In this document: positions 1 through 33,142 of the stretch, in pieces
How positions within the stretch are numbered: position 1 is the first letter of the stretch
Layout: the number at the start of each line of letters is the position of its first letter
Assembly (NCBI GenBank): GCA_044892525.1
Contig: CM097887.1
Coordinates: 115,112,397-115,176,396, forward strand
Source of the DNA: Schmidtea polychroa
Lineage: Eukaryota
Reading direction: 5' to 3'
DNA length: 64,000 nucleotides
Notes under the pieces: generated by a model
The model's input: the letters and a program-made list of their open reading frames with translations, nothing else
Told to the model about the DNA's origin: nothing
The model's database searches: none
Program-made: the position numbers and the translations under genes

Positions 1-498
1 AGTACCCCAAGCCCAAATAAAGCACCGAGTAAATCAAATGAAACCGAGGAGGTTGAAGAGATTATCCTAGAAGATAGTGACGATGAACCAGGAGAAAGAT
101 CGCCACTATTAGTGAGATGGCCAACGGGAGCCGAGATCTGGACAACAAGTAGACCGTCGACGAGTTATCAACAACCGGAGAAACTAAACATCGAGGGAAT
201 CATCGACAATACGACAGAAACAGAAACAGATGAACAATTTAGGAAACAAAGAGAACCAACAAGAATAACTCCGGAAGGGCAAACCGATAAAATAATAGAC
301 GAATGGAATGAATGGCTGAGAAATAATGACAGTTCATTGCCCAGAACAGATAATGAAAGAAACCCGAATCACGAAAATACAAGAGAAGCCGGAACAACAA
401 TGGAAAAACGGACTAAAGGGAGACCCAAGAAACAAGGGGAAAAACCCGAATTTAAAACTAAGGAACAATTAAAGCAAGAACAAGGACAAGTCAGATAA
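1..498 (+). CDS. C-terminal part of an upstream ORF (acidic/basic low-complexity linker), open from base 1; probably the upstream part of the polyprotein
   Basis: Frame 1 has no stop from position 1 (STPSPNKAPSKSNETEEVEEIILEDSDDEPGERSPLL...) to TAA at 496-498; it overlaps the next frame, which is open from 473. Confidence 0.7.
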   Translation, partial: STPSPNKAPSKSNETEEVEEIILEDSDDEPGERSPLLVRWPTGAEIWTTSRPSTSYQQPEKLNIEGIIDNTTETETDEQFRKQREPTRITPEGQTDKIIDEWNEWLRNNDSSLPRTDNERNPNHENTREAGTTMEKRTKGRPKKQGEKPEFKTKEQLKQEQGQVR

Positions 499-529
499 AA
501 TAGTATGGGATCTAAAGGAAGCCCAACCC

Positions 530-945
530 ACGATTGAAAGAGGAGAAAAGTGGATACGGGAATTAATAAAAGATATGTTAATAATAACGAACCCGCAACT
601 CAGACGTCTATGGCAACGAAAAGTAGCAAGCATGGAAGCTAGACAGCTATGGCACATCGTGTCAGGGATAATCCCAAAGTTAATCAAGGAGAAAACAAAA
701 ACCACTAAAACGGATTGGGATGAAACGAGGAGAGTAATCGAACAACTCACAACGAATGCAAACGATGATGAACACCATCTAGTAGTAATAACCTATTTGA
801 TGTATAATTTGATGGGATTAGCTGCAAGAAAAATACCCAATAAACAATTCGCAAACCACGTAGAAATGACAGTAGCAATCATAGAAAATACTATCGAACC
901 ACATATTATCCGTGCCGGAGGATGGAAGAGACTCATCCAAGCGCC
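530..945 (+). other. Bcl-2-like domain within the polyprotein
   Basis: BH2-like HIIRAGGWKRL (GGW at 917-925); BH1-like hydrophobic helix HLVVITYLMYNL; BH4-like WIRELIKDML in the upstream frame extension; all-helical pattern. Recognised by eye only. Confidence 0.5.
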
Positions 946-3900
946 ACGGAAAAACGAACAGGAAAGATCAATGCAAGTCAGATTGAAAAAGTTGCTGAAT
1001 GAACTAGAATGGGAATTACCAATGAAAGATCCAGCTAGCAGAAAAGCGTCAATAAACTCGTTAATGATGACTATGATGATATGGATGTTATGTATCAGCG
1101 GAGCAACAGGCTTCACGATCTATGATTGCGATAATTCCGTAATGAGGGATAGATACTCACTAAGAGACATCGAGGAATGTAGACAAGCTTCACCAAATAA
1201 ATTAGATGTCGTGAACAAAAAAGTCTCATATCATGTGTATCAGGAATCGGATTTCATCAGGACGCTAGCCAAAGAGTGCGTAGTATCAAAGCGTGTGTTG
1301 GCATACTATTGCGGACAATATTCATATTCAACTCTTATACTACCCGGATTGGATAAAGAAATAGTGCCCATACAAAGTGAGGATTGCAAAGAACTGTTTA
1401 GAACCAGAGCGATGAGGATCCGAGACGGAGTAACAATACACGGGCAAAGTGGAATGATCAAAACAGAAAGCATTTACGTAGCCGGACGCGTAAAATCAAC
1501 TGATGGAACATGTAATGGAGGTACGTATACGATCAGAGGAGAGGCGATATCGGGAGTAGTAGTAATCGAGTCATATACAGTTGAGTTAAAAGAATACGAA
1601 GCACAATTTGACGCCAATAATTATCAAATGAAGACCAACCCAGCATGTAGAGCTACGGAAAACGTATGCAAGACGGGGGTTTCGACCATAATATATGAAG
1701 CTAACACCCAAAAATGCCGACTTCAATTGTTGAAAAGTGCTCTGTTCAACGAAGTAAAAGGGGAAATTTATGAGAACGAGGATGATGAGGACGGAAATGG
1801 AAAAGTGAGAATGCGAAATGGAAAACCAGTACTACCATCGCCCAAAGAAAAAAGGCTCACCACACAAAAAACACCAACAGCACTGATCACAGACGATCCG
1901 GACCTAGGCATGAGATTCATCAGAGGGAAGGAGACCACCAAATGCGATAGTATCGTCTACAAGACCAACTACGCAGGTATCTACATGTCACGGCAGATAA
2001 TAGATAGAGCAGTGGGAAAGATAGCCACAGAGGACGTCAAATTGTACCTATATGCTAATAACAAAATGGATTTTTTATTCCATCGTGGACAAACGACACT
2101 GCAAAAAGTATACTACGATCTTATACAAAACGATTGTTCATTAAATAAGGAGATACTGAAAACAAAACTAGCTATAGCGATAACGCACCCTGATAATACG
2201 ATGCCATCACTCCCATTACCGGATGGACATTTTGGTAGGATGGTGGGAGAAGTGATGTATACATATGCATGTACTAAGACGTTTGCACGAATGCCAGAAA
2301 AACCCACGATACCACCAGGGAAATGTGCAAACGAGTTGGAAATTCGTTATAAAGGGCAAAATCGATTCGTCCAACCAGTTACCAGAATTATGAACCCATT
2401 AGGTTTCTACCCAAATCTCTTTAACTGTTCCAATGCGTACGGACCATTATACGAGAGACCCGATGGGAAATGGATAATGTTACCGGTGAGGGCCACAGTG
2501 GAGGAACCCAAGAAGTTTGGATTAATAGAACTCGCTACGGAGCAAGATTTCAAGCCCATAGATGTATCAAACGGAGGCATGTATTCCGCAGCGGATCTAG
2601 AAACAGCACGGCTAAACATACTTTTCCCAGCCAGACGAGAATCAATATTATCAAACATGGTCACAATAACGGGGGGAACGAACTATCAATCAGGTCCAAA
2701 TTATGAACTACTACTATCACCAGAACATTTCCAACACGCAACGTCAAATATGATGAAGGCAATGTGGGGAAGATTCTTAGTATTCGGACAAATGATGGCA
2801 GGAATATTGGGAATCATACTCATAATTCAAATTGTCAGAGTAATATTGACACAAATGTTAGCCTGTTTCGATATATACAAAAGAGAAAAGAAAGTAAATT
2901 GGAAAATGATAGTAGGGTTTCTACCATTTTTAGCAAAAACCATGGTATTACATCGTCACTCAAAAGATATTCATCGAATAAAGCGATTGATCAAAATATT
3001 AACCAAGATTAAAGGAACCGATGAGGAAATAGGTAGACGATTCCGAAAAACCATGTACGACGAAGCAACGAGAAGACAACTGAAAAAGAACAAGCCAAAA
3101 TTCTTAGACCGATTCAGGAGTCAATCATCTAACAGCGATAGTGACGATGACGACGAAGGGAACCACAAATATCCGTATCCCAGCGGACATCCAAAGGAAA
3201 AGCAAATTGAAACCGCACCGTATTGGGAGAAGGATAAGACAAACACCTGGATAGCCAACGGAAGTTATATACCACCGGACATCGTTGGACAACAAGCAGC
3301 CCTGACCATGACACAAAATATGTATCCACAATTACCCAATCAATCCGGAATGAATTATATGCCGACGAGGAGAACCAGAAGTGTAGATCAAGCGGACGAT
3401 GTACGGACAATAGCAGCAATGAGTTTACCTGGAGGTCCGGCAGTAACAGTCATGATCCAAATCAACGGAAAAGAAACAAATGCTATGATCGACACCGGAG
3501 CTAACGTATCAGCAATAGCAATTAATCAAATTCCCAGCAGATATTGGAAAGATATCGAGTCAACAACAATCCACATCATAGCATGCAGTAAAGAAACAGT
3601 AGACGTGGTCGGAAGATGGTGGACCACCTTAAAATACCAAGATAACGAAATTGAAACGTATTTAGCAGTAATACCAAAACTAAGTGTACCATGCATAATC
3701 GGAACAGATCTAATGCCAGAACTACTAAAAGAAGTAGTAATCGATTTAACAACAATGTGCCTAAAGGATAAAACCGGCAGAATATGCACAATGAATGCGA
3801 TAATCAGATGTCCAGAAAAAATAATCGTACCAGCAAAATCACAGATGATCTGTCAAATAAAAGTAGACACGGGAATGGAAGGGGAAGTTATTTTCGAACC

Positions 3901-6871
3901 AAGTAAATCGTTTGAAAAACGACGAGAATTACCGCTAGCAAGAGAAATAATAACAATAAATCAAGAAGGAATGATACCGATCAACATCACGAATTTCGAA
4001 GAGGAAGACAAAATCATCTATGAGAATGAAAAATTGGGAAAATTGACCCCAATGATGGATATAGAACTACCAAAAGTGACCAACGACACAACCAAAAACG
4101 ACGAATTATGGACAATCGACAGTACATTGTTAACAGCTGCCGAAAAGAGAAAATTGCACCGATTGTTAGTGGAATACAAAGATATATTCGCCATCTCAGA
4201 TTTGGATTTGGGTACATGTGATGTCACCCTACATGCAATTCCACTGATAGATGAAACTCCAATCGCATTAAGACCATACAAACTAGCAGAAATGCAAAAA
4301 GAAATAGCTGAAGCAGAAGTGCAAAAGATGCTAGATGCAAAAGTAATCGAACCAAGTTGCTCACCTTGGCAGTTTCCAGTGGTCATGGTGAAAAAGAAAG
4401 ATGGCACGCAAAGATTCTGTATCGATTATCGAAAATTAAATGCAGTAACAAAGAGGGATACCTATCCATTGCCAGACATTAATGAAATGTTACTCATGTT
4501 GCAGGGGGCAGCATATTTTACTTCTTTAGATTTAAAAAGTGGATACTGGCAGATTAAAGTCAAAGATGAGGACAAAGAGAAGACCGCTTTCACTTTGGGG
4601 CGAGATCTATATCAGTTCAGGAAAATGCCATTCGGACTAACTAACGCACCAGCATCATTTCAAAGGTGTATGAACTTTGTCACTCATGGAATAAAACAGT
4701 GTATGGTATATATTGATGATTTACTAATATATTCAGCGACCTTTGAACAACATCTGGAGGATATCCGAAATGTATTTATTCGATTACGACAATGGAAACT
4801 CAAACTCAAACCTTCCAAATGCGATTGGGCAAAGGAAAAGGTTACGTTTTTAGGACACATAGTGTCAGCCAAAGGAAAAGAGCCAGACCCAAGAAACATC
4901 GAAAAAATAAAAACATGTCCAGCACCAAAAACTGTCACCCAAGTTCAGGAATTTCTCGGACTATGTGGATACTACCGTAAATTTATCAAAAATTATGCCG
5001 GAATTGCAAAACCAATCCAAGAACTGGTAAAGAAAGACATCTCATTCAGTTGGGGAAAAGAACAACAGGAGGCATTCGAGACGTTGAGAGATAAATTGAT
5101 TGAAGCACCAATCCTCGTACATCCGGATTTCAAGAAGCCATTTCTATTGGCAACAGACGCAAGCGGATATGCGGCCGGAGCAATTTTAGTCCAACTGGAT
5201 GACGAGGGAAAAGAGAGAGTAATTGGATATTACAGTCGAACATTCAAAAAGCATGAGAAGAACTATTCGGTAACAGAAAGAGAAGCATTAGCTATAATAC
5301 AAGCCATCAAACACTTCCGATATTTACTATGGGGACATGAGATATGCATAACCACAGATCATCAACCATTGGTGTGGTTAGGGCAACATAAAGAAGCGTC
5401 AAGTAGACTAATGAGATGGGCCATGCAATTACAAGAATACTCCCCATTTATAAAATTCAAAGCAGGAAGAGCAAATGCCAACGCCGATTGTATGTCAAGA
5501 TTTATTTTTCCAGATTTGGTGGATTCGGAAATGCAACGCATATGCTTAATAGTAGCGGAAGATTTGGACTTTTGCCAACTGCGAAAGGACCAACAAGAAG
5601 ACGCAGAATTAAAGCAAATTATCGATTATGTAAAAACAGGAAAAACCGAAGTGTATGCGAAAGACCAGAAATTAAAAGAACATATGGATAAACATCGACA
5701 TCGATACATTATAGATAAAGATTGGTTGCTAATAATGGATGGCGAAAAACGATTAATGTGCATACCGGAAAACAGACGAAAAGAGTTACTAACGCAATAT
5801 CACGATGGAAGATTGGGTGGACACATGTCATCAAAAAAGACTTTAGCAAGAATGAAACAGAAATATTTTTGGCCTGCGCTAACCGAAGACGTAACCGAAT
5901 GGGTGAAAAATTGTCTAACTTGTGCAACCAGGAAGAATACTGGATCGAAATGGAAAGCGCCGTTAACGCCAATGCCAGTACCGATAGAACCAATGACAAT
6001 GATATCAATGGACGTAGTCGGTCCATTACCCGAATCGGATAAAGGAAACGTTTATATTTTGGTAATTACGGATTACCTCACGAAATTCCCAGAGGCATTT
6101 GCTATGCCGGATCAAAAAGCTAAAACAATCGCAAATATCTTGGTAGAAGAAATATGTTGCCGATATGGAACGCCGAAGCAAATATTAACAGATCAAGGCA
6201 CAAATTTCATGAGTGAGATCATGAGCGAGGTGACCAACTACTTCAAAATCGCAAAGTTGAGAACATCACCGTATCACCCTCAAACAAACGGGATGACGGA
6301 AAGATTTAACGGAACACTTATCCAAATGTTGTCGAATTACGTCGACCGTCACCAACGAGATTGGGACGAATATATTAACCTATGTCTTATGGCTTATAGA
6401 ATGTCAATTCACGCATCAACAAAAATGAGCCCATTCAAATTAATGTACGGAAGGGAATGTAACATGCCAATGGACCTAGAATATCAACCACCAATATCGC
6501 AATATATGGAGATACACGATTATGTCACAAAATTCAAAGAAAGAATGCAGGAAATTTGGGAAACCGCGGGACTAAACATCAAATTCTACCAGGAAAGTTA
6601 TAAAGATTTACATGATCGAAAGAAAAACGTGAAGCAACATACCTTGCAGATAGGCGATTGGGTAATGATAGAAACACCAGAACTGATTCCGGGAACCACA
6701 AAAAAGTTACAACGAAACGGAAAAGGGCCATATGAGATCTTATTTGTAGGCGAAACTAACGTAAGAGTGAAATTGGTGAATAATCCGTTCACCAGGCCAA
6801 TATACGTAAATGTAGACGATGTAAACCAATCCCAAAAACAGCCATCAGTCAACCAGAAGGCCGTACGTTAA
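575..6871 (+). CDS. pol: Polyprotein: Bcl-2-like domain, internal signal, class III fusion glycoprotein, TM, tail, aspartic protease, RT, RNase H, integrase
   Basis: PR MIDTGANVSAI (~3484); RT PWQFPVVMVKKKDGTQRFCIDYRKLN, LDLKSGYWQI, MPFGLTNAP, YIDDLL (~4709); RH LATDASG, ITTDHQPL; IN H..H..CLTC, MDVVGP, TDQG, ERFN, GPYEI. The frame is open from 473. Confidence 0.95.
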   Translation: MLIITNPQLRRLWQRKVASMEARQLWHIVSGIIPKLIKEKTKTTKTDWDETRRVIEQLTTNANDDEHHLVVITYLMYNLMGLAARKIPNKQFANHVEMTVAIIENTIEPHIIRAGGWKRLIQAPRKNEQERSMQVRLKKLLNELEWELPMKDPASRKASINSLMMTMMIWMLCISGATGFTIYDCDNSVMRDRYSLRDIEECRQASPNKLDVVNKKVSYHVYQESDFIRTLAKECVVSKRVLAYYCGQYSYSTLILPGLDKEIVPIQSEDCKELFRTRAMRIRDGVTIHGQSGMIKTESIYVAGRVKSTDGTCNGGTYTIRGEAISGVVVIESYTVELKEYEAQFDANNYQMKTNPACRATENVCKTGVSTIIYEANTQKCRLQLLKSALFNEVKGEIYENEDDEDGNGKVRMRNGKPVLPSPKEKRLTTQKTPTALITDDPDLGMRFIRGKETTKCDSIVYKTNYAGIYMSRQIIDRAVGKIATEDVKLYLYANNKMDFLFHRGQTTLQKVYYDLIQNDCSLNKEILKTKLAIAITHPDNTMPSLPLPDGHFGRMVGEVMYTYACTKTFARMPEKPTIPPGKCANELEIRYKGQNRFVQPVTRIMNPLGFYPNLFNCSNAYGPLYERPDGKWIMLPVRATVEEPKKFGLIELATEQDFKPIDVSNGGMYSAADLETARLNILFPARRESILSNMVTITGGTNYQSGPNYELLLSPEHFQHATSNMMKAMWGRFLVFGQMMAGILGIILIIQIVRVILTQMLACFDIYKREKKVNWKMIVGFLPFLAKTMVLHRHSKDIHRIKRLIKILTKIKGTDEEIGRRFRKTMYDEATRRQLKKNKPKFLDRFRSQSSNSDSDDDDEGNHKYPYPSGHPKEKQIETAPYWEKDKTNTWIANGSYIPPDIVGQQAALTMTQNMYPQLPNQSGMNYMPTRRTRSVDQADDVRTIAAMSLPGGPAVTVMIQINGKETNAMIDTGANVSAIAINQIPSRYWKDIESTTIHIIACSKETVDVVGRWWTTLKYQDNEIETYLAVIPKLSVPCIIGTDLMPELLKEVVIDLTTMCLKDKTGRICTMNAIIRCPEKIIVPAKSQMICQIKVDTGMEGEVIFEPSKSFEKRRELPLAREIITINQEGMIPINITNFEEEDKIIYENEKLGKLTPMMDIELPKVTNDTTKNDELWTIDSTLLTAAEKRKLHRLLVEYKDIFAISDLDLGTCDVTLHAIPLIDETPIALRPYKLAEMQKEIAEAEVQKMLDAKVIEPSCSPWQFPVVMVKKKDGTQRFCIDYRKLNAVTKRDTYPLPDINEMLLMLQGAAYFTSLDLKSGYWQIKVKDEDKEKTAFTLGRDLYQFRKMPFGLTNAPASFQRCMNFVTHGIKQCMVYIDDLLIYSATFEQHLEDIRNVFIRLRQWKLKLKPSKCDWAKEKVTFLGHIVSAKGKEPDPRNIEKIKTCPAPKTVTQVQEFLGLCGYYRKFIKNYAGIAKPIQELVKKDISFSWGKEQQEAFETLRDKLIEAPILVHPDFKKPFLLATDASGYAAGAILVQLDDEGKERVIGYYSRTFKKHEKNYSVTEREALAIIQAIKHFRYLLWGHEICITTDHQPLVWLGQHKEASSRLMRWAMQLQEYSPFIKFKAGRANANADCMSRFIFPDLVDSEMQRICLIVAEDLDFCQLRKDQQEDAELKQIIDYVKTGKTEVYAKDQKLKEHMDKHRHRYIIDKDWLLIMDGEKRLMCIPENRRKELLTQYHDGRLGGHMSSKKTLARMKQKYFWPALTEDVTEWVKNCLTCATRKNTGSKWKAPLTPMPVPIEPMTMISMDVVGPLPESDKGNVYILVITDYLTKFPEAFAMPDQKAKTIANILVEEICCRYGTPKQILTDQGTNFMSEIMSEVTNYFKIAKLRTSPYHPQTNGMTERFNGTLIQMLSNYVDRHQRDWDEYINLCLMAYRMSIHASTKMSPFKLMYGRECNMPMDLEYQPPISQYMEIHDYVTKFKERMQEIWETAGLNIKFYQESYKDLHDRKKNVKQHTLQIGDWVMIETPELIPGTTKKLQRNGKGPYEILFVGETNVRVKLVNNPFTRPIYVNVDDVNQSQKQPSVNQKAVR
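1052..2950 (+). other. Env-like class III fusion glycoprotein (chuvirus/Monjiviricetes G, gB-like) within the polyprotein
   Basis: Signal-like INSLMMTMMIWMLCISGATG|FTIYDC. Cys pattern ECVV..YYCG, DCKELF, DGTCNGG, central helix NDCSLNKEILKTKLAIA, GEVMYTYAC, CANELEI..FVQPVTRI, CSN..P.Y..GKW, GMYSAADLE. TM FLVFGQMMAGILGIILIIQIVRVIL at 2774-2848. Confidence 0.85.
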
Positions 6872-6894
6872 CCACACGTTCGCAAACTTACCGA

Positions 6895-9438
6895 ATGAAC
6901 ATGATGCAACAGCTCGCAGAACCAACGACTGGACGATTGGGTATCCAACCATCAGAAGCTGAAAAGATTGTAACGGAGGTAAAGATTAAAATACCCGGAT
7001 GGGCAAAAGATAGACTAGACTTCGAAATATTAGGAGGACTATTGACAATGATCGAAAACTATGCAAACAGAGAAAGAACGCATCCGTTGTTACGAGTAGT
7101 CAAAAGCCAATGGCCGATATTATTTACCGTAACAGATCCTTATGGAGACACACCATTACATAAACTTATGAAAGTAGGCAACAACGAACAAATACTAGAG
7201 ACAATAGAAGCATTTCACGACTGCAATAGATCAACAGAACAAGAAAACAACCAGGGTTACACACCATTAATGATAGCAGCAAACAGAGGCAAAACAAAAG
7301 ACATTATAATCGCATTACTCGACACCGGATCAAAGATAACCACACAAGATCGTAATCAGAAGAACGCGCTGCATCATGCAATTGAAGGGAGAAGTTCCGA
7401 AGCATTCACGACGTTGATGGAACTACTAGCATATGAAGATAATCGAGAAGTCGGAAACATGTATGACGGTTTATTAACCGCAATCAAAGAGAAATTGACA
7501 ACAATTACCGGAATATTGATTACATGGAGAAATCCAATCAAAAATGATTACATGATCGACGTAAACGAAGCATTCACGAGAGGAGAGAACACGCTTATGA
7601 GAGAAGCCATGAAAGGACATCATTTATTCGAAATCCCAAATCAATTAATGGAACGAGGAATAAAATTCACAAACCATAAAGACGAACAGCTATTAAAAAA
7701 GCGAACTGACACATTCGAAAAATCCATATTCCAATTCGTTAACCAAGCACGAAATAAACATTGGGAAACAGTAAGTGTGCTATATATGATGGACACAATG
7801 AACAACATTCGCGAGAATTACTTAGATATTATTCAAACACTTACAGCGGAAGAACGAATCAATAATTCAACCAGTAAGAAAACAAAAATAAAGAAAGGAA
7901 CATCAAAAGAACCAAAGTCGCAAACGAATCAAATTGCAGCAAATAATGTCAGCAAAACGAAACCAAGAAATTTAGATCAAGAAACAATAATACGCAAAGC
8001 GAAAGAAGTATTCTTTGAGGAAATGCTAGAGTTATCAGACGAAATGATATTGGCTAAAATAATAAAGACCGTACACACATACGCAAGGGATCAAACAACA
8101 GAGTTGGATATCGGAAAAATCAAAACCTTCATGCCACGAGCATTTACCATGTTAACCAAGGATCAAAGAACGTCGTTACAACAGGCAATACTAGCAGCAA
8201 AGGAAAACCGAGCAATAACGATAATAAGAATCCTCAGAGATTTGGGTAAGGAAACCAACACGAAAAACGAACAACGCGAAACCGCCATGATGTATGCAGC
8301 TATAACAAAAATACACCCAAAAACACTCCATATACTACATCAATCAGGATCAAGACTGGATGAAAAATCAACCGAAGGGAACTCCACAATGGACTGGGCA
8401 ACCATACAGCCGAACCTAGAAATGATCAGGTTCATATGCAAAAATGCGACAAAGGAAGAAGTTGAAAATATTTGCAAAAACACATCTCATTTTCAGTGGA
8501 ATACGGTACGGGAAAATCTAGAAGCCATGAAATTATTATTAACATGGAGAGTGCCGCAAAGTAATAAATACGCGATTAACGTAAACGAATTTTATGAGAA
8601 CGGTGAAAACACAATGGTCAAAAATACATTAACTAAAGGGGGGACACCTAAGATCATACTAATTGTATTGAATAGAGAAGATCTGAGATTCACGAAAAAC
8701 CCAAACGAACATCAACGAATTGGAAAACACCGCCGTATACAACTGAGAGAACTAGTGAAGGAATGGAATCGGAAAAGACACGCAGCAACCGGGAGAAAAG
8801 AGTTCGAATTCGAGGCTAAACTAGCAAGAAACAGAGTACTAACAGCATACCGAAGATTATTAAACGATATAAATGTCGAGGACGACATTTTAAACGACAG
8901 CGGGGGAGATAAATTCGATGATAATGACGGAAAGGGTCGAAAAGAGGATAAAGAGAAAAGAAAACCGGAAGAGGATAACCCGGAAAACAAAGACCCAGGT
9001 ACGGGAAAGGACGGAAACAACCCGGGAAACAAGACGAAAGAGGAGGAAAAACCGAATAATGGAAAACAGAGGGTATGCCTACCTTTCACCAACAAAGAAA
9101 TAGAAACAAATATGATACTAATGATAATTGTCCTAACCATGATAGAATTAGTAACAGCCCATGGAGAGACGAGAACGTTAAAAGAGACCAAAGAAGCAGA
9201 GAACCACGACAACAAAAAGGAGGAGCTGAAGCCAGAAAAGAAAAAACAAGTACAAGAGCAACAATGGGATCTGAAGGAGGAGTGGGATCTAAAGGAAAGA
9301 TGTATACTGGGAAGATGCATGTCTAAAGCATATCGGAGATTAGTGTTAATGAACGAGGACACAGAACCGATAACGGAAGTGGGAATACAAGAAGCATACC
9401 AACACCGGAACGGGAAGAGAATAACGAAAGTTAAATGA
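6895..9438 (+). CDS. Ankyrin-repeat protein with two duplicated ANK modules; probably the continuation of the polyprotein (frame open from 6784)
   Basis: GDTPLHKL, GYTPLMIAA, KNALHHAI, RETAMMYAA, GNSTMDWA. Internal duplication: LITWRNP..IDVNE..GENT..FTNHKDE versus LLTWRVP..INVNE..GENT..FTKNPNE. Confidence 0.9.
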   Translation: MNMMQQLAEPTTGRLGIQPSEAEKIVTEVKIKIPGWAKDRLDFEILGGLLTMIENYANRERTHPLLRVVKSQWPILFTVTDPYGDTPLHKLMKVGNNEQILETIEAFHDCNRSTEQENNQGYTPLMIAANRGKTKDIIIALLDTGSKITTQDRNQKNALHHAIEGRSSEAFTTLMELLAYEDNREVGNMYDGLLTAIKEKLTTITGILITWRNPIKNDYMIDVNEAFTRGENTLMREAMKGHHLFEIPNQLMERGIKFTNHKDEQLLKKRTDTFEKSIFQFVNQARNKHWETVSVLYMMDTMNNIRENYLDIIQTLTAEERINNSTSKKTKIKKGTSKEPKSQTNQIAANNVSKTKPRNLDQETIIRKAKEVFFEEMLELSDEMILAKIIKTVHTYARDQTTELDIGKIKTFMPRAFTMLTKDQRTSLQQAILAAKENRAITIIRILRDLGKETNTKNEQRETAMMYAAITKIHPKTLHILHQSGSRLDEKSTEGNSTMDWATIQPNLEMIRFICKNATKEEVENICKNTSHFQWNTVRENLEAMKLLLTWRVPQSNKYAINVNEFYENGENTMVKNTLTKGGTPKIILIVLNREDLRFTKNPNEHQRIGKHRRIQLRELVKEWNRKRHAATGRKEFEFEAKLARNRVLTAYRRLLNDINVEDDILNDSGGDKFDDNDGKGRKEDKEKRKPEEDNPENKDPGTGKDGNNPGNKTKEEEKPNNGKQRVCLPFTNKEIETNMILMIIVLTMIELVTAHGETRTLKETKEAENHDNKKEELKPEKKKQVQEQQWDLKEEWDLKERCILGRCMSKAYRRLVLMNEDTEPITEVGIQEAYQHRNGKRITKVK

Positions 9439-10704: not shown

Positions 10705-12111
10705 ATGTGTATAATTGTAGACATGGATAAACAAAAGAGAGAAGAGTTCAACGAAATCATCGAGTTAGTCAGAGATTCCGCAGCAATCAGAATACACAAA
10801 CATGTCATGTGTGGAATATGTGAAAAATTATTAAAAGAACCCCATCAAACCCAATGCGGATGCAGAGTGTGCAAAGAATGTATAAAAGAAACAATAAAAA
10901 ACCGACCACAGTGGTGCCCGATATGTAAAGAGACACTGATATCAAGTTTAGAAGATACTAATGAAGACAAAGCCGCGGTAAAGGACATGTTGAACACTAA
11001 TCTGGGATGTAAAAATACCCCATGTGAATGGAAAGGATCAATATGGAAAGTGAAACAACATCTGGTGGAATGTATGTACAAAGTCAGCCAGTGTGAACGA
11101 TGCCAGAAATTAATTCAAGCTAACGAAGAAAAGGAACATCAAAGTCAGTGTGAAGAAAGGTTGGAAAGATGCGAATATTGCGGAGAAGTAGACACATGGA
11201 AAAATCTCACCATCAAACATCACAATGTCCAAGAGGAAAAGGTATGTGCAGAATTCTGTGGTGAATGCCCGAACGGATGCAACAAAGGGGGAGTAATAAA
11301 ATTAGCCCAGCATCTAAAAGAATGCGAAAGGAAAAGAATGATATGCGTACTAGGCAAATGGGGGTGTCAGAAATTACTACACCGAGAAGACTTGCCACAC
11401 CACTTAACCGAAAATGTAATAACTCACGCAGAGATGTGGTCAACTGCACTACAAGACAGTGAAGAGAAAGTGCGACAAATGGAGATAGAAATAACCTCAC
11501 TGAAAGCATTAGTAAAAGAACTGCTAGAAGAACGAGAGGCTTTTGAACAAGCTCGAGCAAACATAAAAATGCAAATTAATCGAATGGAAATCAGTAACGA
11601 TCAGGCCAAAGTACTGCATCAGAAAATAAATGAAATCAATCTAAATGAGGTAATACCAACTGCACCGTATATATGGAAAATAACGGGAGTAAAAGAAAGA
11701 GTACGAAAAGCAAAAACCGGAGAAGATACAAGACTAACAAGCCCCGCATTCCATTCCTGGAAAAACGGATACAAAATGAAAATGAAGGTATATCCCAACG
11801 GGAACGGGACCGGATTAGATACGCATTTTTCGATCTTCTTTATGCTCTGCAAAGGGGAGTATGATGAAATATTAGAATGGCCATTCCAGGCAAAAATCGA
11901 TATTACACTAATGAACAACCAAAGTATACACGAGCAAAGCTTCAAAACAACGGGGAATCAAATAGCTTACCAGAGGCCCCTCAACGAAGAAGGAGCAGCA
12001 ACAGGAGCACCGACGTTCATTTTACAACAAAGGGTAGAAGATATGGCGAGAAATGATACCGTATATATCAAGATGACGGTTCGGAGGGAAGGAAAGAGTA
12101 GAACCGAGTAA
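10705..12111 (+). CDS. TRAF: Intronless full-length TRAF-family protein (RING, TRAF zinc fingers, coiled coil, MATH), TRAF2/3/5-like
   Basis: RING CGIC..QCGCRVCKEC..CPIC; zinc fingers CKNTPCEWKG, CERC, CEYC, CPNGC; MATH YIWKI..SPAF..GYKM..YPNGNGTG..THFSIFF..EWPF. Confidence 0.95.
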   Translation: MCIIVDMDKQKREEFNEIIELVRDSAAIRIHKHVMCGICEKLLKEPHQTQCGCRVCKECIKETIKNRPQWCPICKETLISSLEDTNEDKAAVKDMLNTNLGCKNTPCEWKGSIWKVKQHLVECMYKVSQCERCQKLIQANEEKEHQSQCEERLERCEYCGEVDTWKNLTIKHHNVQEEKVCAEFCGECPNGCNKGGVIKLAQHLKECERKRMICVLGKWGCQKLLHREDLPHHLTENVITHAEMWSTALQDSEEKVRQMEIEITSLKALVKELLEEREAFEQARANIKMQINRMEISNDQAKVLHQKINEINLNEVIPTAPYIWKITGVKERVRKAKTGEDTRLTSPAFHSWKNGYKMKMKVYPNGNGTGLDTHFSIFFMLCKGEYDEILEWPFQAKIDITLMNNQSIHEQSFKTTGNQIAYQRPLNEEGAATGAPTFILQQRVEDMARNDTVYIKMTVRREGKSRTE

Positions 12112-14890: not shown

Positions 14891-15499
14891 TTGTAGCAGC
14901 AAACCCCAACCAGAACCATCAGAGTGACCGAACAATGCCAGAACTGAACTAAAAACATTATGTTGTGAAAAACTTTGTTGTGTATATAAACCATCACCAT
15001 AAGTGATGCCTGCTTGGTCTTGATTTGACCTATATCTTATTAATAAAATTCTATTGATGTTTATAATTTTGTTAATCACTATGTTATCTTTTTATGAATG
15101 TGTTTATCTTTTTATGAGAGAGTAAGAGTAGCTCAAGTATGTAATTGCGGGACGCAATTTTATCGGGTCCCCGAGTGATTTGTTGGGCTGAGTCGAAAGC
15201 ATAATCGTCAAATTTAGGACAGATAAGACGCGAACAAATAAAATAAGACCACAAATTGCTAAAATAAATAAATCAAGAGACAAAAGAAACAATAACGTAA
15301 AATATTAAGATTAAAACAAAAAATAAAAAATAGAAAAATTAAAATAAGGTAATAAGATAAGGAATAAAATGACGAAAAATGCAACAAATAATGAGGAATT
15401 TAAGAAACAAATAAAAAATATATTAAAATAAAGAAAAATAAGGAAAAACAACCAAAGAAATAAGAAAAACAAATTAATTTAAAAGTTAAAGCGGTACTC

Positions 15500-15590
15500 A
15501 ATTTTGATTGGTCCGCATAAACAAAAAATTCCTATATAAGCAAACAGCAAATTCAATATAGTTACTGTTTAACAAACACCATTACAGGTA
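15500..15590 (+). promoter_or_regulatory. Putative Pol II promoter (LTR or internal) with first exon and splice donor
   Basis: ATTGG (reverse CCAAT) at ~15507, TATATAAG at 15533-15540, TAGTT Inr-like site ~28 nt downstream, CAG|GTAAGC donor at 15588. Confidence 0.5.
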
Positions 15591-17680
15591 AGCTCATAAT
15601 TTAAAAACTTACTGTTTAACAAACACCATTACAGATCAACACTCAACCATTACAGACGATCACCGACGTACAACCTAAACGACTATCAGGGACAATTAGA
15701 TTTTTAACTCAGTACAATAACCGAATTCAGCTTTTCGACTCAGCTTTTCGAGATCACAGATCGATAAAGAATAAAGTAAGGATGTATTCTTATTATGAAT
15801 TCGAGTAAATGTTTCTCATGGAAGTTAATAGTAATAATGTTTATTATCACAATTTTAATAAAATTTTAATGTTCTCTCCATTTGGTCTCATATTTTAATA
15901 ATCAAATAGTTTCAGTAATGAAATTTAAAACCTTTTATGATAGATAACTATGCATGATGATTTCGATTTTTATGGAATTTATATGAAAATTATGGTTGAG
16001 TAACGTGGAGTTGAGGAGACCTGTACCATGGTGTGAGGAGCCTTCGGGATCTCAGCCGGTGGGTACAGACTTCTTCAATCACGCAGCTGACGTGGGCCGG
16101 AAAGTGGGGGCTTCCTCACGGGTCCGTCGCTGAGGGAATTAAAATGTTGCAAGAATTAGCTGACAATAACATAGAATACCATTCGGATTGGAAGATGAGG
16201 ACGATCTTAAAATCCATGACTGAGGTGGCTACAAACGTTTATTTTTCAAAACCCATCATTCTTAGCTGTTACATCTTGAATTCTTTACCTAATACCCGTA
16301 ATCAGTCTGAATCGCCTAAGTGTGCCAATCGACATTCCATCTTCTGAGTACCAAACCCATTTCTGTTGAAATGCACGTCAATTTCCGTCTGACCTGTAGA
16401 AACTGAGTACCAACCCATTCGTCGACGCTATACAATCACATGAGAAGTATAGATGAAATTTATTGAACACAATTTTTTATTAAGAAAATGTATTACGAAA
16501 CTGTTTTATTTTTAACCAAATTATTTCGAAGTGTTCTGAAAATTACACTCACAGTAGGATAAACTCCCTTCAGTAAAGGACACCTCCGATTGACCTTGTT
16601 AAATTGCAGATTTTTCGAATAAGTCGAAGGAAATGTCCACGAAATAAAGTTATCCAAGTAGAAAACACAATTAACTGCACATCGCGGGGAACAAATCCAA
16701 CATTAGCGTTTGATGAGAGAGCAACCTAGATGACATATTGATTCCACGAATTGATTCGACCCAGTGGTGTATTGCGATCATCTGCGAACGATAATTCCGA
16801 TAATGAGCAAACATACGAGATAAATCACACGCACTAACACACTAGTACTTACTCACATATGCGACATGCAGTATTTTCCCAGTCAGCTACAAGTATTGAG
16901 AACCGAAATTAAAACACGCACAGACAACAAGGCTGGCTCGGATAGATAGCAGGCCGCCTGTCTCATGCTTCCATTATCTGGCATGACGAACTATTTTTCA
17001 TGAGATTGATCTTATTACAGGTGTTTCCCGACATATAGCTAATTTCATCGTAGATTAAAATTTTAACTTGCAGAATGGTAATTCCGAACATTAATAATAG
17101 ATAACGGCCAGGTGATTGGTGCATATTCCAAATAATTTGGTATTAAACGGGGACCCAGCAGCTATTGAGTGGAGATTAATTTTGCCTGCGCATCCGCTTG
17201 CCGAGGTGGGAATTCTGAGTTATGTCCTGGGGGAATAATGCGTTGGTTAAGGGGGAAATCGGAAGGCGTTAACAATAAAATTTTGTTTTCTGCGTTTGGT
17301 CTATTTCCAAAGATATTATTTGAAGGAATTATTAGTTATCGGCTCAATTTCGTTGTCCATTTTGTGTACAAGGAGGTTGGGCATCCCCGCATCTAATTAA
17401 TTACGAATTTGTTTTTGTTGTTTCTCCATTACACCAAGGGAAAGAGGGTCACGGCTTACAACTCGACCGGTAGATGACATTCGAATTTAATAATAATAAC
17501 TCAGAGATTTTCTTCACCCATTAGCATAAATCCCTTCCTCTTAATATATTAGGACCACATCAAAATTAATGTATAGCTTGTAGGAAAATTCATAGATGAT
17601 TAGGCCACCAGGCTGGTTTAAATAGACATAGCGAATCTTGTATTTTATCCTTATTGTTTCTTTCATTCTAGCCATTGAGA

Positions 17681-18430
17681 ATGTTACCAAGCTCGAAGTC
17701 GTCTCTCAAACCCTGCTTCTCATGCTCAGATAAGAATTCTATAATCAGGGATTTGCAAGCCCAGATCGGTCGATACAAGAAAGCGATCGACCATCTGGAA
17801 GGTACATGGTTCAGCCCAGTACAAATGAAGGAGGTACAAAAGAAATTGTACCGAAGCGAGCACTGTCGCGACGCCTTAATAAGCGAGAGTAGGGCCCAAC
17901 GCAGTCTTATCAAAGAGCAGTCCGAGGCTCTACACAAGGTCTACGTACAAGCGGCAGCAACTAGAAAGATAGTGAGTATACCTATCAATGGAGCGGACGA
18001 CCTTTTCCCCGTCCATCATGAACTTCCTTCCAATTCGTCATCTTCGGCTAAGAAGCCCTGCCGGGAATGCGTGGAAGCCGATCTCTCTCCCAGGTCAACC
18101 ATAGTGTCTCCCATTGGAGCCCAGAAAGGGTTATCATCGACCGCGTCTTCCTCTGTCGTACTATCAAACACCCTGATTGTTCCAAAACCCAAGCGTCGAC
18201 AGTTGTCCAGAGCTGAGCGTAAAAAGCGTCAGCGCGAACGAGCAATCGCCAAACAAAGTGGACTATCTGCCGAGCTCTCCAGTACTTCGAACGATCCCCC
18301 TGTAACGATCGATTTAACCGTAGGGATCCCAGGGCGAATCATCTCCGCCGCTGGTGTAACTTGGGAGGAGAATGCCTCCGAATTCTTCGAGCTGGAGGAG
18401 CTGTTAGCCGACGCAGAATGGGAAAAGTAA
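17681..18430 (+). CDS. Basic/Ser-rich protein with coiled coil, NLS-like cluster and acidic C-terminus; probably a spliced accessory gene
   Basis: ATG at 17681 lies 9 nt after a polypyrimidine-AG acceptor (17641-17671); PKPKRRQLSRAERKKRQR; AATAAA at 18567. Confidence 0.6.
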   Translation: MLPSSKSSLKPCFSCSDKNSIIRDLQAQIGRYKKAIDHLEGTWFSPVQMKEVQKKLYRSEHCRDALISESRAQRSLIKEQSEALHKVYVQAAATRKIVSIPINGADDLFPVHHELPSNSSSSAKKPCRECVEADLSPRSTIVSPIGAQKGLSSTASSSVVLSNTLIVPKPKRRQLSRAERKKRQRERAIAKQSGLSAELSSTSNDPPVTIDLTVGIPGRIISAAGVTWEENASEFFELEELLADAEWEK

Positions 18431-19569
18431 AGATCTCAATCCAATGCAACTACATCGATCATGTTTAGTAAATTGAACGATTCTGACTTATATGTTCTCG
18501 TAAACCGTCTTCCCTTGATTTATATTAGTCCTGTAGTTTTAACTGTATAGCGTACTATGATAGTAGAATAAAGAAATTTTCGTCATTTCTTATTGTCAGT
18601 TTTTGTTTGATTAGCCATTATAAAGGTTCAGAGTAGGTTTTACAACCCAAGCGCAAACTTTAGTTCGAAAAGCATTAGACAATCTGTATATAACTCGGTG
18701 TCAGGTAGGGAAGGAAATGGTGGAGTGATCAGACGTAAGCCCTTCCATCGGCAGTCAGAAAAAGGAAGTCGAGGCCTCAGTAAGGAGTAGTCCTAAGGTA
18801 GGGGCTCACCTGCTTACTGGTGTCTCGCCGGCATAGCACATTTCCAACGTGGAGCAATTCACGGGTGCTATGTTGGAGTACAAGTTGTGCGGGGTCTTGC
18901 TCCGGATTGACGTAAGCACACTTAGCGTAAATGAATGGACACTCATCTCCTAGACAGGTGCGTAAATGAGTTAAGGTCAATCAAGCACTACCCCAGCACA
19001 AACATGATTTAAAAGATTGACACCATCATGGAAAACAAGGGTCAAAGATTACCCAGGTAAAAAGTCCAAAAATTCAAAAGTCTTAGAAATTTTTCTGCAC
19101 ATTTGAACTTTTATTTTTTAAAACTTTTAAAAACTTAAATGAGTTTTTTCACTGTGTTTTAATACATTAATCAATATAAGAAGAGAATGATATATTAATA
19201 ATATATGTATTGTCATTTAAAATAAAAAAAAATATATTCAAACCGTGTAAAGTTATATATAGTTGAAAAGAGCAAACGAATATCTACAGATGACATATTA
19301 TTCAACATATGATCATATAAATTGAACAAGATATTAAAATTAAAATTTTTAAAAATTTCAAAAATAAAGTTTATAAAAAAATAAAGTTTTGATATGTTTT
19401 AGGGTATCACAAAACGAATATTTTTCATTAAGGAACAATATCTTTAAAATGACTTAAAACATGTTTACATGTCTTTGTTAGTCATGTATTAGTTAATCAT
19501 ACATTTAAACGTCTTTATTATTCGTGCACTTCTATTGCACATGTCTTTGTTAATCATACATTGAAACTC

Positions 19570-20770: not shown

Positions 20771-21763
20771 CAGTATTACCATTTCATTTGAATATCTATC
20801 ATGTGATGGCGAAAATTACCATATTTAACTAACTTTAACCTCAAATTACATAAAATTTTGTAAAAGTTACCCTAACAGCAATTTATTTATAACAAATTTA
20901 AACAAATTATCTAATATTTTGTTAAATATTTCCTTAAAATGTATTTCTAACTAAATTAATTTTCTGAATGTAATTGCAAATACTAATTGGGTATAAAAAT
21001 GATCATCTTTTTACTAAATTATCTAAGATTTTGCTAAAAATGATTTAAAAAGTCCATTTATGTTCAGATATATGCTTATATTGTCTATAGACTTGCTTAG
21101 ATACAACAAAATGACAAAGATAACCAATATTCATAAAATAGTCAAACGTTTCTCAAAATGTGTATGTTGTACCAAAGAAATTTGATAAAAGTTACTAATA
21201 TATAAAGATTTGTTATCCTATGTGACCATGTATTTCTCACAAAATGTTACATAAATATTTATACCCGACGATTATCTATTTCTCATTAAATTACCTAAGA
21301 AATGTTACTCTATATGACCATTTATTTCGATCTAATATACGTAAGCGCTCGAATTGGTTAGAGGATAGCCAAATAATTGTTTCTATAATAACTAAATAGC
21401 ATGGAATTCTAACAAAAGATATACAATTGACTGAAATTACTCTAAATGATAAAGTATTTCTCCCAAAATTTCCAAGCTAAAATGGATCTGAAAGAATGAA
21501 GATTTAGTAAAATTAATAATTTAACACAAAATGGAAGATAATATGTTATATATATATATATATATATATTGAAATTAATCTAAATTTTTTAATATTGATT
21601 TTAATGGCTATATTTGTCATACAAAAGCTATATAAAATTTAATTTTTATTTATTAAAATTTAATTTGAGTTGATTTCTTAGAATTTTTGGGAATTACTAA
21701 AATGTTATGGAAATTGTTATATAATAATCGTTTGACTTAAACTAGGGTTTAGAGACATTCATC

Positions 21764-22450
21764 ATGAAAATTTTACTTATTATATTTTTCTCATACACTA
21801 GTTTGTTAGACGCGTGTGTGCGTTCAAATATTAGAATTGAACTATCAAAATCCAAAGTTGTGGTTCCTTTGGCATCAATATTCCAATTCAATGCAACATT
21901 TCCATTGGAAGAGTTGACTGACTATAAATTCAACATTTCGTTTACAAAATCCTCAAAAGTAAAAGAACTAGATCGCGTCATCATATTTCTAGCTTTCAAT
22001 AAAGAAGTTAAATCGCTGATATTTCTATCAAAGCTGTCTTACAAGGAAATTAACTATGGCACTCCACAATTGTTTTCCATTTCAAATTATACATTTCAAT
22101 CTAGGTTGGTAAATGGAAAATTGAGATTTCGAGAAATCGCTACCAATAAACAATTCAATGTGATGGCATTTACCTATTCTCATAATGAAATTGATGGTCT
22201 CTACAATCAATTTGATGAAAAATGGGCAAGCTTTAATCAAACTGTAATCTATAGGTCGACCCTGCTAATAAATAAGCAGCCTATTCTCAAATCACTTGTG
22301 GATATTCTAATGGAACATTTATGGATTTTGATTATTATCAGCATTCCAGCAATTATTTTAATTGGAGTTTTTCTCTTTCAATCCGTGGAAATATGTTTAA
22401 AGCGCAAAGAAAAGAAACCACAAGAAAAATTGACTGAGTTCTCCCTTTAA
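21764..22450 (+). CDS. Single-exon type I membrane protein, uncharacterised family (paralog A)
   Basis: Signal-like N-terminus, C-terminal TM LWILIIISIPAIILIGVFLF, basic tail; paralogs at 44295 and 47438. Confidence 0.8.
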   Translation: MKILLIIFFSYTSLLDACVRSNIRIELSKSKVVVPLASIFQFNATFPLEELTDYKFNISFTKSSKVKELDRVIIFLAFNKEVKSLIFLSKLSYKEINYGTPQLFSISNYTFQSRLVNGKLRFREIATNKQFNVMAFTYSHNEIDGLYNQFDEKWASFNQTVIYRSTLLINKQPILKSLVDILMEHLWILIIISIPAIILIGVFLFQSVEICLKRKEKKPQEKLTEFSL

Positions 22451-23376
22451 TATAACTGATAGTTATTTGTAATTTCCAGCTGTCCCGGTTTATTTTACAG
22501 ATGAAATGTAGGCTTTTATCTATTTGTGATTTGGAAATTAGTTTTGTATAAAATATATTTCTATGTTCTGATGAAAAATATTTTTTTAATTATTATGTAT
22601 TAACAATTATTAGAAAGCGCCACTCAAACATCCGTTCGACGATTTATTTCGACAGTCGCAATGTCATCAGCAGGTCAGATAGAATAGAAAAAACTAAATA
22701 TAATAGATTCAAGAATTATTGATTTTTAATGAAATTATAATATGTTTAAATTTTCAAATTTAAATATTTAAAATAATTTTAATATAATTTCAAAAATCTG
22801 TTAAACTGATTAATATAATAATGTAACCATTTCATACATTTGTAAGCGCATATAATACTATTAAGAAATAAGATATCAATGTATTGTATTCTTGTGATTA
22901 AAATTAAAAATAATTTTGATCTAAAAACTTTTGATCAACTTTCAATTTATCTTTTAATTTAGGAAATTGTTTTTTAATGTGTTGTTTAAAATTGTTAAAA
23001 AAAAGTTTGTAATTAGATATCGCGCGTAAGAAATTTTTATATTAAATTATTGCTTATTAAAATCGGAATAACTAATTATATCTATTATTCAAGTCATATA
23101 ATGGTATCAGAAGAAAGATAAATTCGAGGCTTATATTAATATCTAAATATGGAATTGTATAAATTAATTAAACGCTGTGGATTTTATTATGCAATTCAAG
23201 ATATCAGCTACAAATAAGTTAGATTGTGAAAATAAAAGTGATGAAATTCTCTAAACTGCTCATTTTACGTCTAATTCAGAAATTTAATAGCCTCTATAAT
23301 ACACGTTGGGGTGCACACCAGTTGAGGTGACTCGCCATTTATGAGAAAATAAAGTTTATAACTTCATTTATTCAAT

Positions 23377-27480: not shown

Positions 27481-29225
27481 TATACTTTTTGATTCTTTTT
27501 AATTTATTATAAACTTTGCATTTTTTTACATTTAAACAGTTTTATATTCAATGTTTCAGTTTCCATTGATTTCTGGGTTCGATTTTCGAGTTTATTACTA
27601 TGTTGGAAGCAATCTCTTACTAATGTGTTATGTCTTTGTCCCTATTTACACGATTTCGATTTACAAAGAATTCTCGGTAACCAATCTAACGTGTAAGTCA
27701 GTGGATAAGTGGATAATACTCCTGTTTTTTTTTTATTAGAAATAATGATCTTTTAAAAGTTGTATTAAAAAACAGGTTGAAAAAGTGTTTAGAGTAATCA
27801 TTAGAATAAATTATTTATTTTATCATGTAAAATGTAGACACAAATTCAACAATTATCAATACTAGAATTAATATTTTAATTTTCCGTCTCTTCTTTTAAG
27901 GGGCCTAACTTTTTATTAATACAATATATTTTTTATTTGTAAATTAGTTATTTAAATATCCCTAACATCTCCCCTGTTTAAAAGGTTTTAGTCATTCAAC
28001 GTTGCGAATTATAATTTTTCCATCTGTCTCGTAATTCATAAATTTTTGCATGGATCTTTCTAACAACGGTAAAAGGTCATGTATATCGGTCTTCTTTTTT
28101 TCTCACATCTACTTAAATTAAAACTTTTTCATTTATATCGAATTCTCGGTGTATCCAGTTCTCATTTTTATAATTTAAATTTCTTTGTTTTGATTGCACT
28201 TTCTCCACTATTTTACTTCTATCGTTGTATATTCTTTTATTATTGTTCCATTCTCTAGATATAGGGAAACCAAATACTGCTTCTGACGGGTTCTTTCCAA
28301 TTGTGCTATGAATAGTAGCATTTAAATTAAACTCAATTTCAGGTAACACTTCAACCCAATTCCTCTTAAGTTTATCTCTTAATGATATATTGATAAAATC
28401 TGGTATTGTTCGAAATTGTCTTTCAATCATACCATTATTATTATGATGATAAGGGCTAGAAAATTGTAGCTGCATATTGTGACTATTTGCCAACTCTTTT
28501 ATCAAATTAGACTCAAATGTTTTTCCATCATCAACATGAATAACTCTCGATGCCCAATATTTTAATATCCAGAATTTCACAATAGTATCCACTGTAGTTT
28601 TTTCGTCTTGCTTTGCTACTACTGTCAACGAAATGTATCGATTACACACACATATATATATATATATTCCCCACAATATATTTCTTTCCATGAACGTTTA
28701 CCTGCAAGGGCCCACAAAAAACTATCGCTATAACATCAAACGGTTATATGCAACTATTTATTTTGTTTTTGTTGTCAAAGTTTTTCGTTGCTGACATATT
28801 TCACAACTTTGTATATATTGAGTCGCGATTGTATTTAATTCCTCCTTATCGTAATTAACTTTTATATAATAGATTACCTTCTTACATCCAGCGTGACACA
28901 GCATTTTGTACATATTATTGATAAATACTATTTTATTTTCTTTTGGAATCCAATTTTTTTCTCTTGATATAATTAAATCTTCGTTGATTTTAAATCTTGT
29001 AGTTTCATTTTTATCAATTGATTTTCTCATATGTTCTATCTCTTCATTACCTTTTTGCCATTGAAATACATGTTTAGTAGCTGTTATTGCCAACAATCTG
29101 GTTTTTATTTTCTGTCTTTGCATCTTCATGTATTTCCATACACTGTGTACATCTCCAAAATCTATCTCTCATTTTTATCATTCAATATTTAATTTTCGAT
29201 ATTTAATGTCCATATCTAAACTACT

Positions 29226-29519
29226 TGTTAGACGCAATTAAATTCAAGTCTTCTTCAAGCATTTATTTTTATAACAACTTCAAAAATTGAGCCGTTTGCT
29301 AGAATATTTAAACACCTAGGCGTGATAATTAATAATATTAATGTAATTACTGGTCATACATTTAATTGATTTAATTTAATATAATTTAATATAATATGGT
29401 ATAATTTAATATAGAATTTAAATATACAAATTTAACAGAAATAATTATTTCTACTAACTGATCTCACTTCTACCATTTAACCATAATAATTTTATATAGA
29501 GATTTACTAACTCCTTACA
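29226..29519 (-). repeat. 3' LTR of the young Gypsy
   Basis: Direct repeat of 33940-34233. Confidence 0.95.
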
Positions 29520-32500: not shown

Positions 32501-32529
32501 GGTCTACCTTGCATTTTGTCATAACTCAA
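29515..32529 (-). pseudogene. pol: Disrupted pol (PR 32215-32529, RT-RH 30432-32039, IN 29515-30498)
   Basis: LLDTGARVN; YLDDILI; LDTDAS; MDICGP, HVDCG, GPYTI; split over several frames. Confidence 0.9.
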
Positions 32530-33142
32530 TTTCGGTCGTTTCCATTCATCTTTAGTGAAAATATTTTGCTCCTCTGATATTTCATTAATCCACCCAATTT
32601 CCTTTCTCTCTAATTTATCTTCTGCCTTCTTAATAAATTTATAAATTTTTTCATTTACTATTTTATTATTATATTCTGCTTCTTTAATTTCATTATACTC
32701 TTCTTGATTCTTAGGATTATTATTATTATTTATTAAAGATCGATCAGCATTAAAATAACTATAACATTTAAAATTATTTAAAGGAAACTTTTTAAAATTA
32801 CAAATATTATTACATAAAGGTTCTACATTATTATATATATAAGGATTATTTACATTATTAAAATTATTATGACCAATATTTACATCAATATCAAAATTAC
32901 CTAGTATATTGCTCCGATCATTGCCTCCCGTGTCGAAGAATGTACTTTTGGGTGCTGAATCTCCTCATATTTGTCTTCTGCATCGTCTGAATACTCCAGT
33001 GGCATCGTCTCATCATTAGGTTCAATTGCTGCAATTGTTCTTCTTGGATTGTTGATCTTTTGTTGATAGCTTGTGGTTCGATGGGCATAATAATTATTGT
33101 TTCTCATGTTTGAATTAGTTTGAAACTTCCTTCTTTCCAAAT

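Follow-up and report, generated by a model that had tools for sequence, protein, structure and literature searches.

Giant Gypsy elements of the Burro type carry MATH_TRAF_C, BIR, ankyrin and BCL2-like cargo and have env between gag and pol, and an element of Dugesia tigrina bears MATH_TRAF_C on an accessory ORF (PMC6431247). Planarian TRAF sequences have been counted in transcripts, with 99 transcripts harboring 121 MATH domains in Swapna et al. (PMC6109357) and 150-212 contigs per human TRAF in Ziman et al. The available parts of these two papers do not link the sequences to Burro, and the meaning of the TRAF expansion is called unresolved in the available text of PMC8807557 and PMC7586133, which also gives RNAi evidence that Smed-TRAF-2A/B is needed for survival and homeostasis.

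MATH/TRAF-type cargo in Burro is already published (PMC6431247), and the locus described here adds a fuller description, that of a whole, conserved TRAF. It lies in a stretch of 64,000 nucleotides of the Schmidtea polychroa genome, hereafter the window. A sequence-only reading of the window had taken it for an intronless retrocopy of a host TRAF with a family-specific RING, and for a possible source of the TRAF expansion of the lineage. A literature search found no paper on a full-length RING-bearing TRAF in Burro, nor any that reports C4C4 RINGs for planarian TRAFs; its scope did not include Grohme 2018 and Jurka 2007, which may already show this.

A whole TRAF on a Burro-type element

With 30 kb of DNA added upstream of the window, the element that carries the TRAF was delimited at about 29.6 kb, with LTRs 99.8% identical over 3819 bp, TG...CA ends and a 4-bp target duplication, CAAA (Table 1). 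Its order is IAP-type RING ORF, gag, a weak Bcl-2-like region, fusion glycoprotein, PR-RT-RH-IN, ankyrin ORF, two ORFs, the TRAF and three ORFs. Gag (Retrotrans_gag, CCHC knuckles) is encoded in other frames in the DNA that precedes the window, the polyprotein of this copy being spread over three overlapping frames. The fusion glycoprotein (PF24664, E 4.5e-71, aa 464-803 of the polyprotein) is placed between the Bcl-2-like region, a weak match under the cut-off (E 0.007), and the protease (aa 993-1084). The size of about 30 kb with LTRs, the CCHC gag, the Bcl-2-like region, a fusion glycoprotein between gag and pol, the Gypsy order PR-RT-RH-IN and the ankyrin and MATH_TRAF_C cargo are all shared with Burro/GYPSM1, and the element is a young Burro-type giant Gypsy, assigned by features as described in PMC6431247.

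Some differences are nevertheless present. That description names only a MATH_TRAF_C domain, whereas here the element bears an entire TRAF, RING and zinc fingers included; its place is 3' of pol, the MATH_TRAF_C ORF of D. tigrina being described as upstream; and, unlike in Burro1/GYPSM1, there is no MATH in the scanned gag part and no BIR adjoining the TRAF. No BIR domain was found in the scanned ORFs of the element, which has only the IAP-type RING ORF, and because this cargo is absent we regard the element as Burro-type and not as Burro1 itself. A BIR is present in a related subfamily with 80% pol identity. The first ORF after the 5' LTR (196 aa between stops, some 6.0-6.6 kb before the window begins) codes for an IAP/MDM2-type RING (PF13920, E 1e-10) without BIR and is 26% identical to the ORF at the equivalent place in a Burro1-type element.

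Table 1. Features of the window and their coordinates
Feature	Position	Strand	Remarks
Burro polyprotein, distal part	473..6871	+	weak Bcl-2-like, Monjiviricetes-type fusion glycoprotein, protease, RT, RNase H, integrase
Ankyrin-repeat accessory ORF, 884 aa stop to stop	6784..9438	+	
Two accessory ORFs, 224 aa and 128 aa	9439..10638	+	no Pfam match
Element-borne full-length TRAF ORF, 468 aa	10705..12111	+	single open frame, Pfam, structure matches, fold model
RING with eight Cys ligands, aa 36-74	10810..10926	+	sequence
Three accessory ORFs 3' of the TRAF, 360, 241 and 203 aa	12278..14890	+	first two coiled-coil-looking by eye
3' LTR, TG...CA	15181..18998	+	pairs with the 5' LTR 6.8-10.6 kb upstream of the window start
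Open frame inside the 3' LTR, 252 aa	17672..18430	+	in both LTRs; no Pfam match
DDE_1/Tc5-type transposase frame, 455 aa	25931..27298	+	
Second, ordinary Gypsy element	28113..34233	-	gag knuckle, protease, RT, RNase H, integrase; flanking coordinates 29226-29519 and 33940-34233 hold 294-bp direct repeats that are 99% identical
Inverted repeat, about 830 bp, 89% identical	21726..22541 and 44205..45025		21.7 kb apart; open frame of about 240 aa in each
Second, diverged TRAF copy	59132..60494	-	46-63% identity in four pieces; frame changes and stops

Other arrangements of the cargo were seen elsewhere in the genome. A Burro1-type element at C1:21533001-21563000 (L096-L098) has two TRAF-type cargos, a MATH within a polyprotein frame of 4791 aa and, further downstream, a complete TRAF with a BIR-RING IAP ORF after it. 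Copies of the polyprotein MATH number at least 39, as counted with a pattern for one codon variant. At C1:210025268-210029548 (L110) one frame of 1789 aa runs from the ankyrin ORF through the ORF after it into the TRAF, and the 128-aa ORF is missing, which is probably a deletion. Moreover, an old LTR fragment at a distance of about 6.5-7 kb from a host TRAF gene (L058) contains a diverged homolog of the LTR frame. No tRNA gene was found in the window.

The TRAF frame proved to be complete, as had been read from the sequence: a RING, zinc fingers, a coiled coil (helix 238-309) and a C-terminal MATH (322-459) follow each other in one open frame. Pfam recovers the MATH with an E-value of 4e-26 and, weakly, a C3HC4-type RING at 36-74. 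The predicted resemblance of the MATH to TRAF2/3 is also borne out, the best matches to solved structures being TRAF3, TRAF1 and TRAF2 (E about 1e-28 to 1e-26), while the RING-zinc finger part matches TRAF6/5/2. A monomer fold model built from an 86-row alignment has a mean pLDDT of 91, with a 72-residue helix preceding the MATH and TRAF3/2/1 as top Foldseek matches. The true start may be Met7 (10723), since the matches of related copies open at residue 6-7. The A-rich codon bias attributed to the element is likewise found in the TRAF, where third positions (A3 0.46, T3 0.16) are close to those of pol (0.44 and 0.18) and unlike those of eight host TRAF ORFs (A3 0.30-0.38, T3 0.30-0.44).

The RING ligands are C36, C39, C51, C53, C56, C59, C71 and C74 (C4C4), with Cys53 at the place of the His that is the fourth ligand in TRAF2. 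The same change had been noted in the second TRAF copy of the window and is confirmed there (ECGCRMC); homologs of the same accessory ORFs flank this copy, which is thus a decayed Burro fragment. Ile38, Pro72 and Lys75 are retained, at what we take to be the usual E2-contact and linchpin places. Vertebrate TRAF2/3/5 share with the window protein the MATH fold and motifs, the coiled coil and the zinc fingers, but the vertebrate TRAF2 rows have His at the fourth ligand place and, judging by length, more zinc fingers, and the SSS stretch of TRAF2/3/5, presumably a receptor contact, reads QIA in the window protein. The unrelated CNOT4 and TMEM129 also have eight Cys ligands, whereas the window RING keeps TRAF spacing; in the available text of PMC4024746 the C4C4 RINGs of these two proteins are active ligases.

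Parts of the element are found in contigs from three runs guessed to be RNA and from an unlabelled one, which cannot serve as evidence of transcription, and no RNA dataset was listed as containing the TRAF stretch. Element RNA can be made, since Burro1 RNA is reported to rise in differentiated cells after smedwi-2 RNAi (PMC8532177, available part).

Host TRAF2-like genes and the origin of the cargo

The RING with eight cysteines had been taken for a trait of the element family, and this does not hold. Across the genome the pattern CGCRxCxxC occurs at 844 sites, many of them off Burro, and CGHRxCxxC at 2. A Pfam MATH search, in which the best 150 of 1551 candidates were scored, ranked host genes first. 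Host TRAFs at L056-L059, L061, L063, L100 and in a cluster on C4 (L099 twice, L107) have a CGC RING and host composition and are not set in Burro gene order, their surroundings holding scattered unrelated gag/pol fragments and, near L058, the one old LTR fragment. RING through MATH lie in one frame of 330-487 aa in all of these genes. Among 151 outside proteins, obtained with a HMMER search of representatives (a word-indexed protein search gave 1 match among 7997 scored), 98 have a readable motif, with His in 83 and Cys in 15; the latter include Dendrocoelum TRAF-2, -4 and -5 and TRAF3-like proteins of the echinoderms Antedon, Anneissia and Asterias. His is therefore not obligatory in the TRAF family, since Cys stands in 15 of these 98 homologs and in the sampled host TRAF2-like genes.

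The host genes include one that is 71% identical to Dugesia japonica TRAF2-like A, and L056 has one mismatch to a forward primer of Smed-TRAF-2A/B and 4 and 5 mismatches to two further primers. Planarian TRAF2-like proteins of the host (Smed-TRAF-2A/B, D. japonica TRAF2-like A, Dendrocoelum lacteum TRAF-2/-4/-5) share with the window protein the four-part architecture, a length of about 450-490 aa, the CGC RING and, where the gene is visible, a single coding exon, but they are only about 28-31% identical to it, have host composition and lack the Burro gene order. Two host TRAFs retain His (CGH; L101/L035 and L102/L060). They are paired in the MATH trees, and in both a few kb separate the MATH frame from the RING frame upstream of it, which is presumably an exon of its own; we take them to be TRAF4-like.

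The absence of introns, read earlier as a sign of retro-capture, is not diagnostic, because the coding region of the host TRAF2-like genes is single-exon too. Coding introns are absent from the host genes that come nearest in the trees and in the searches, and no intron-bearing parent was found. The expected tie between intronless CGC-type TRAFs and the element held by half only, many such TRAFs lying off it. Both the C8 RING and the single-exon state appear from the sequences to derive from the host lineage, which removes the C8 RING as a novelty of the element.

Phylogeny, proposed in the sequence-only reading as a means of settling the origin, places the element TRAFs among planarian TRAFs. 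In the main tree (29 full-length rows out of the 67 of a quick tree, which agrees with it) element and planarian host TRAFs form one clade (97/93) and the element TRAFs group together (99/95), as sister to the C4 host cluster and Dendrocoelum TRAF-2/5 at only 88/86. With the RING removed (21 rows) the planarian clade has 94/94 and the element TRAFs 99/97, the inner order being open, and a constrained tree of the same 21 rows, in which the host planarian TRAFs group to the exclusion of the element, was not rejected (p 0.196). Branches are long for the element rows, whose letter composition is unusual. As the trees place it among planarian TRAFs, the element TRAF was likely captured from a flatworm TRAF2-like host gene. 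Of the claimed retro-capture of a host TRAF mRNA, the host origin is thus favored by the trees, but nothing shows a loss of introns. Capture through RNA is the usual route for LTR elements.

The best candidate for the donor lineage is the cluster of single-exon host TRAFs at C4:28.37-28.40 Mb (L099, L106-L108; four matches, three of them read). The RING of this cluster ends in C-x2-C as in the element TRAF, and one of its types shares the stretch QTQCGCR. Dendrocoelum TRAF-2 was considered as a possible Burro passenger, an idea that gained no support, its best matches being the C4 host genes (35-39%, against at most 34% for element copies, as judged without its own genomic DNA). The capture seems to be an early one, as three subfamilies of the element, with about 85, 70 and 30% TRAF identity, hold the TRAF at the same place.

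Copies, selection and the planarian TRAF expansion

In a protein search the best 91 of 2112 candidates were all 83-100% identical to the window TRAF, 88 of them without internal stop. All 30 closest copies have the same flanking ORFs in Burro gene order and the CGC motif, with the 128-aa ORF directly upstream and the 360-aa ORF following. A DNA pattern for the element-type RING hits 573 sites in the genome (control 0), a few host genes fitting it as well. We sampled every fifth of the first 100 such sites listed on C1 (n=20, one chromosome): all 20 lie in Burro gene order, which upholds the TRAF as cargo of the element, and 15 have an unbroken frame of at least 415 aa from RING to stop. By TRAF identity these copies fall into three subfamilies, with 7 near 85%, 5 near 70% and 8 near 30%. 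In the last, a BIR-RING IAP directly follows the TRAF in 8/8 sampled copies, which is not so in the subfamily of the window, and the RING is deviant, with its first Cys pair four residues apart and Gly at the linchpin place.

The comparison of dN/dS between copies, also proposed beforehand, points to purifying selection, with pairwise values of 0.075-0.168 against the window copy in 17/17 comparisons. In these pairs dN/dS is low across RING, zinc fingers, coiled coil and MATH alike. For the RING it is 0.04-0.09 in most pairs within the subfamily (0.36 in one) and 0.11-0.23 against the 70% subfamily; pol has 0.01 in 4/4 usable comparisons. In the 70% subfamily TRAF dS is similar to that of pol, both figures being read from dS near saturation. 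The TRAF is thus kept by purifying selection on the element, as stable cargo.

A second set of TRAF-like genes lies in host arrays. Their RING pattern hits 188 clustered sites, none of the 20 sampled being in Burro gene order. The clusters are found on C1 at 2-17 Mb and 257-263 Mb and on C2 near 3-5 Mb and 110-124 Mb, where the genes, 10-20 kb apart among transposon fragments, have RING parts that stay constant and MATH loops that vary greatly. Three short GT..AG introns were read by eye in one array gene and split frames seen in others, so that the introns are putative. In two MATH trees the arrays form their own clade, with 98/90 in the first and 95/87 in the second (13 of 47 rows dropped, one added), apart from the element TRAFs; an AU test with the second set did not reject a tree joining the two (p 0.063). 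We conclude that these approximately 190 clustered, apparently intron-bearing host TRAFs are a separate expansion and not Burro passengers, and they alone reach the published scale. A mobile vehicle other than Burro may have spread them.

Sorting the TRAFs by introns, RING type and proximity to Gypsy, as the earlier reading had suggested, therefore gives a divided picture, with the sampled element-type sites on Burro and the sampled array sites off it. In DNA the element-type matches outnumber those of the arrays by about 3:1 (573 vs 188, about three quarters of the two classes), the three RING patterns used not being strict subsets of one another and mutated copies escaping them. The element raises the genomic TRAF copy number and supplies the majority of RING-TRAF loci, but as source of the host family expansion it is only partly supported, given the arrays off Burro in a clade of their own. 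In transcript assemblies its near-identical copies would likely collapse. Smed-TRAF-1/2 was also considered as the MATH of the Burro polyprotein, again without support, its primers having no match under 4 mismatches in the sampled loci, which may be of another species.

Possible roles of the element TRAF

We lean towards regarding the TRAF as an accessory gene of Burro, likely taken whole from the single-exon, all-Cys-RING TRAF2-like genes of the host, and likely an active pro-survival adaptor and ubiquitin ligase. The protein would trimerize through coiled coil and MATH and bind the tails of receptors or adaptors, which its RING would ubiquitinate; working beside the Bcl-2-like and IAP-like cargo, it would damp cell death or stress signaling and so favor survival of the cell that expresses the element. 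Trimer formation, tail binding and a survival-favoring ubiquitination seem, from the sequence, slightly on the probable side. An active role is consistent with the ability of C4C4 RINGs to be ligases, with the retention of the eight ligands and of Ile38, Pro72 and Lys75, and with the constraint on all four parts. Against it, the fact that all domains are conserved also agrees with a dominant-negative competitor, and no BIR adjoins the window TRAF. In the available part of PMC8532177, knock-down of BURRO1 by RNAi brought no improvement of the smedwi-2 phenotype, and nothing there speaks for a strong effect of the cargo.

Such a competitor would be a decoy that occupies receptor tails or enters host TRAF trimers but passes no signal on and so blunts the immune or stress pathway that removes element-expressing cells. 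We consider this possible, though not probable: the constraint on MATH and coiled coil is as strong as that on the RING, and the deviant RING of the 30% subfamily, with an IAP alongside, would fit an adaptor without ligase activity of its own; however, the RING is constrained in the subfamily of the window, with its ligands and usual E2-contact residues kept, and a protein acting only as a decoy could dispense with it, as does the MATH-only domain of the Burro1-type polyprotein. The matter is more open for the subfamily with the deviant RING, where a decoy is more plausible than in that of the window. A role in the life cycle of the element, in which ubiquitination would serve particle assembly, budding or polyprotein turnover and not host signaling, could be imagined from the fact that selection acts on the element and from its fusion glycoprotein and several ubiquitin-system domains (PMC6431247), but it is highly improbable, as the cargo set (TRAF, IAP, Bcl-2-like, ankyrin) fits one host pathway, death-receptor/survival signaling, and no element substrate is indicated. 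The sequence-only reading in its full form, with a retrocopy of an intron-bearing host TRAF mRNA, a C8 RING gained on the element and most planarian paralogs as passengers, is very unlikely. The excess of element-type matches, the element-like base composition and the joint clade that the AU test leaves standing agree with it, but its RING and intron arguments are refuted by host TRAF2-like genes that are themselves C8 and single-exon, C8 occurs in the Dendrocoelum and echinoderm proteins, the sampled arrays lie off Burro in their own clade, and TRAF-2A/B, whose function has been studied, maps to a host gene.

The TRAF set of this genome splits into three countable classes, about 570 copies carried by Burro, about 190 host genes in clusters and, among the loci examined, roughly a dozen TRAF2-like genes with a single coding exon, and short RING motifs separate the Burro passengers from the host arrays, so that transcript sets and RNAi reagents can be sorted. 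Taking up the pro-survival adaptor again, we suggest, as a tentative idea, that Burro carries a complete captured death-receptor survival circuit, in the manner of a virus, and that the element TRAF, with roughly 400 intact frames against about 200 host genes, is perhaps part of planarian TRAF signaling when PIWI silencing slips. If this were true, part of the reported TRAF expansion and of the TRAF expression signals would be element activity.
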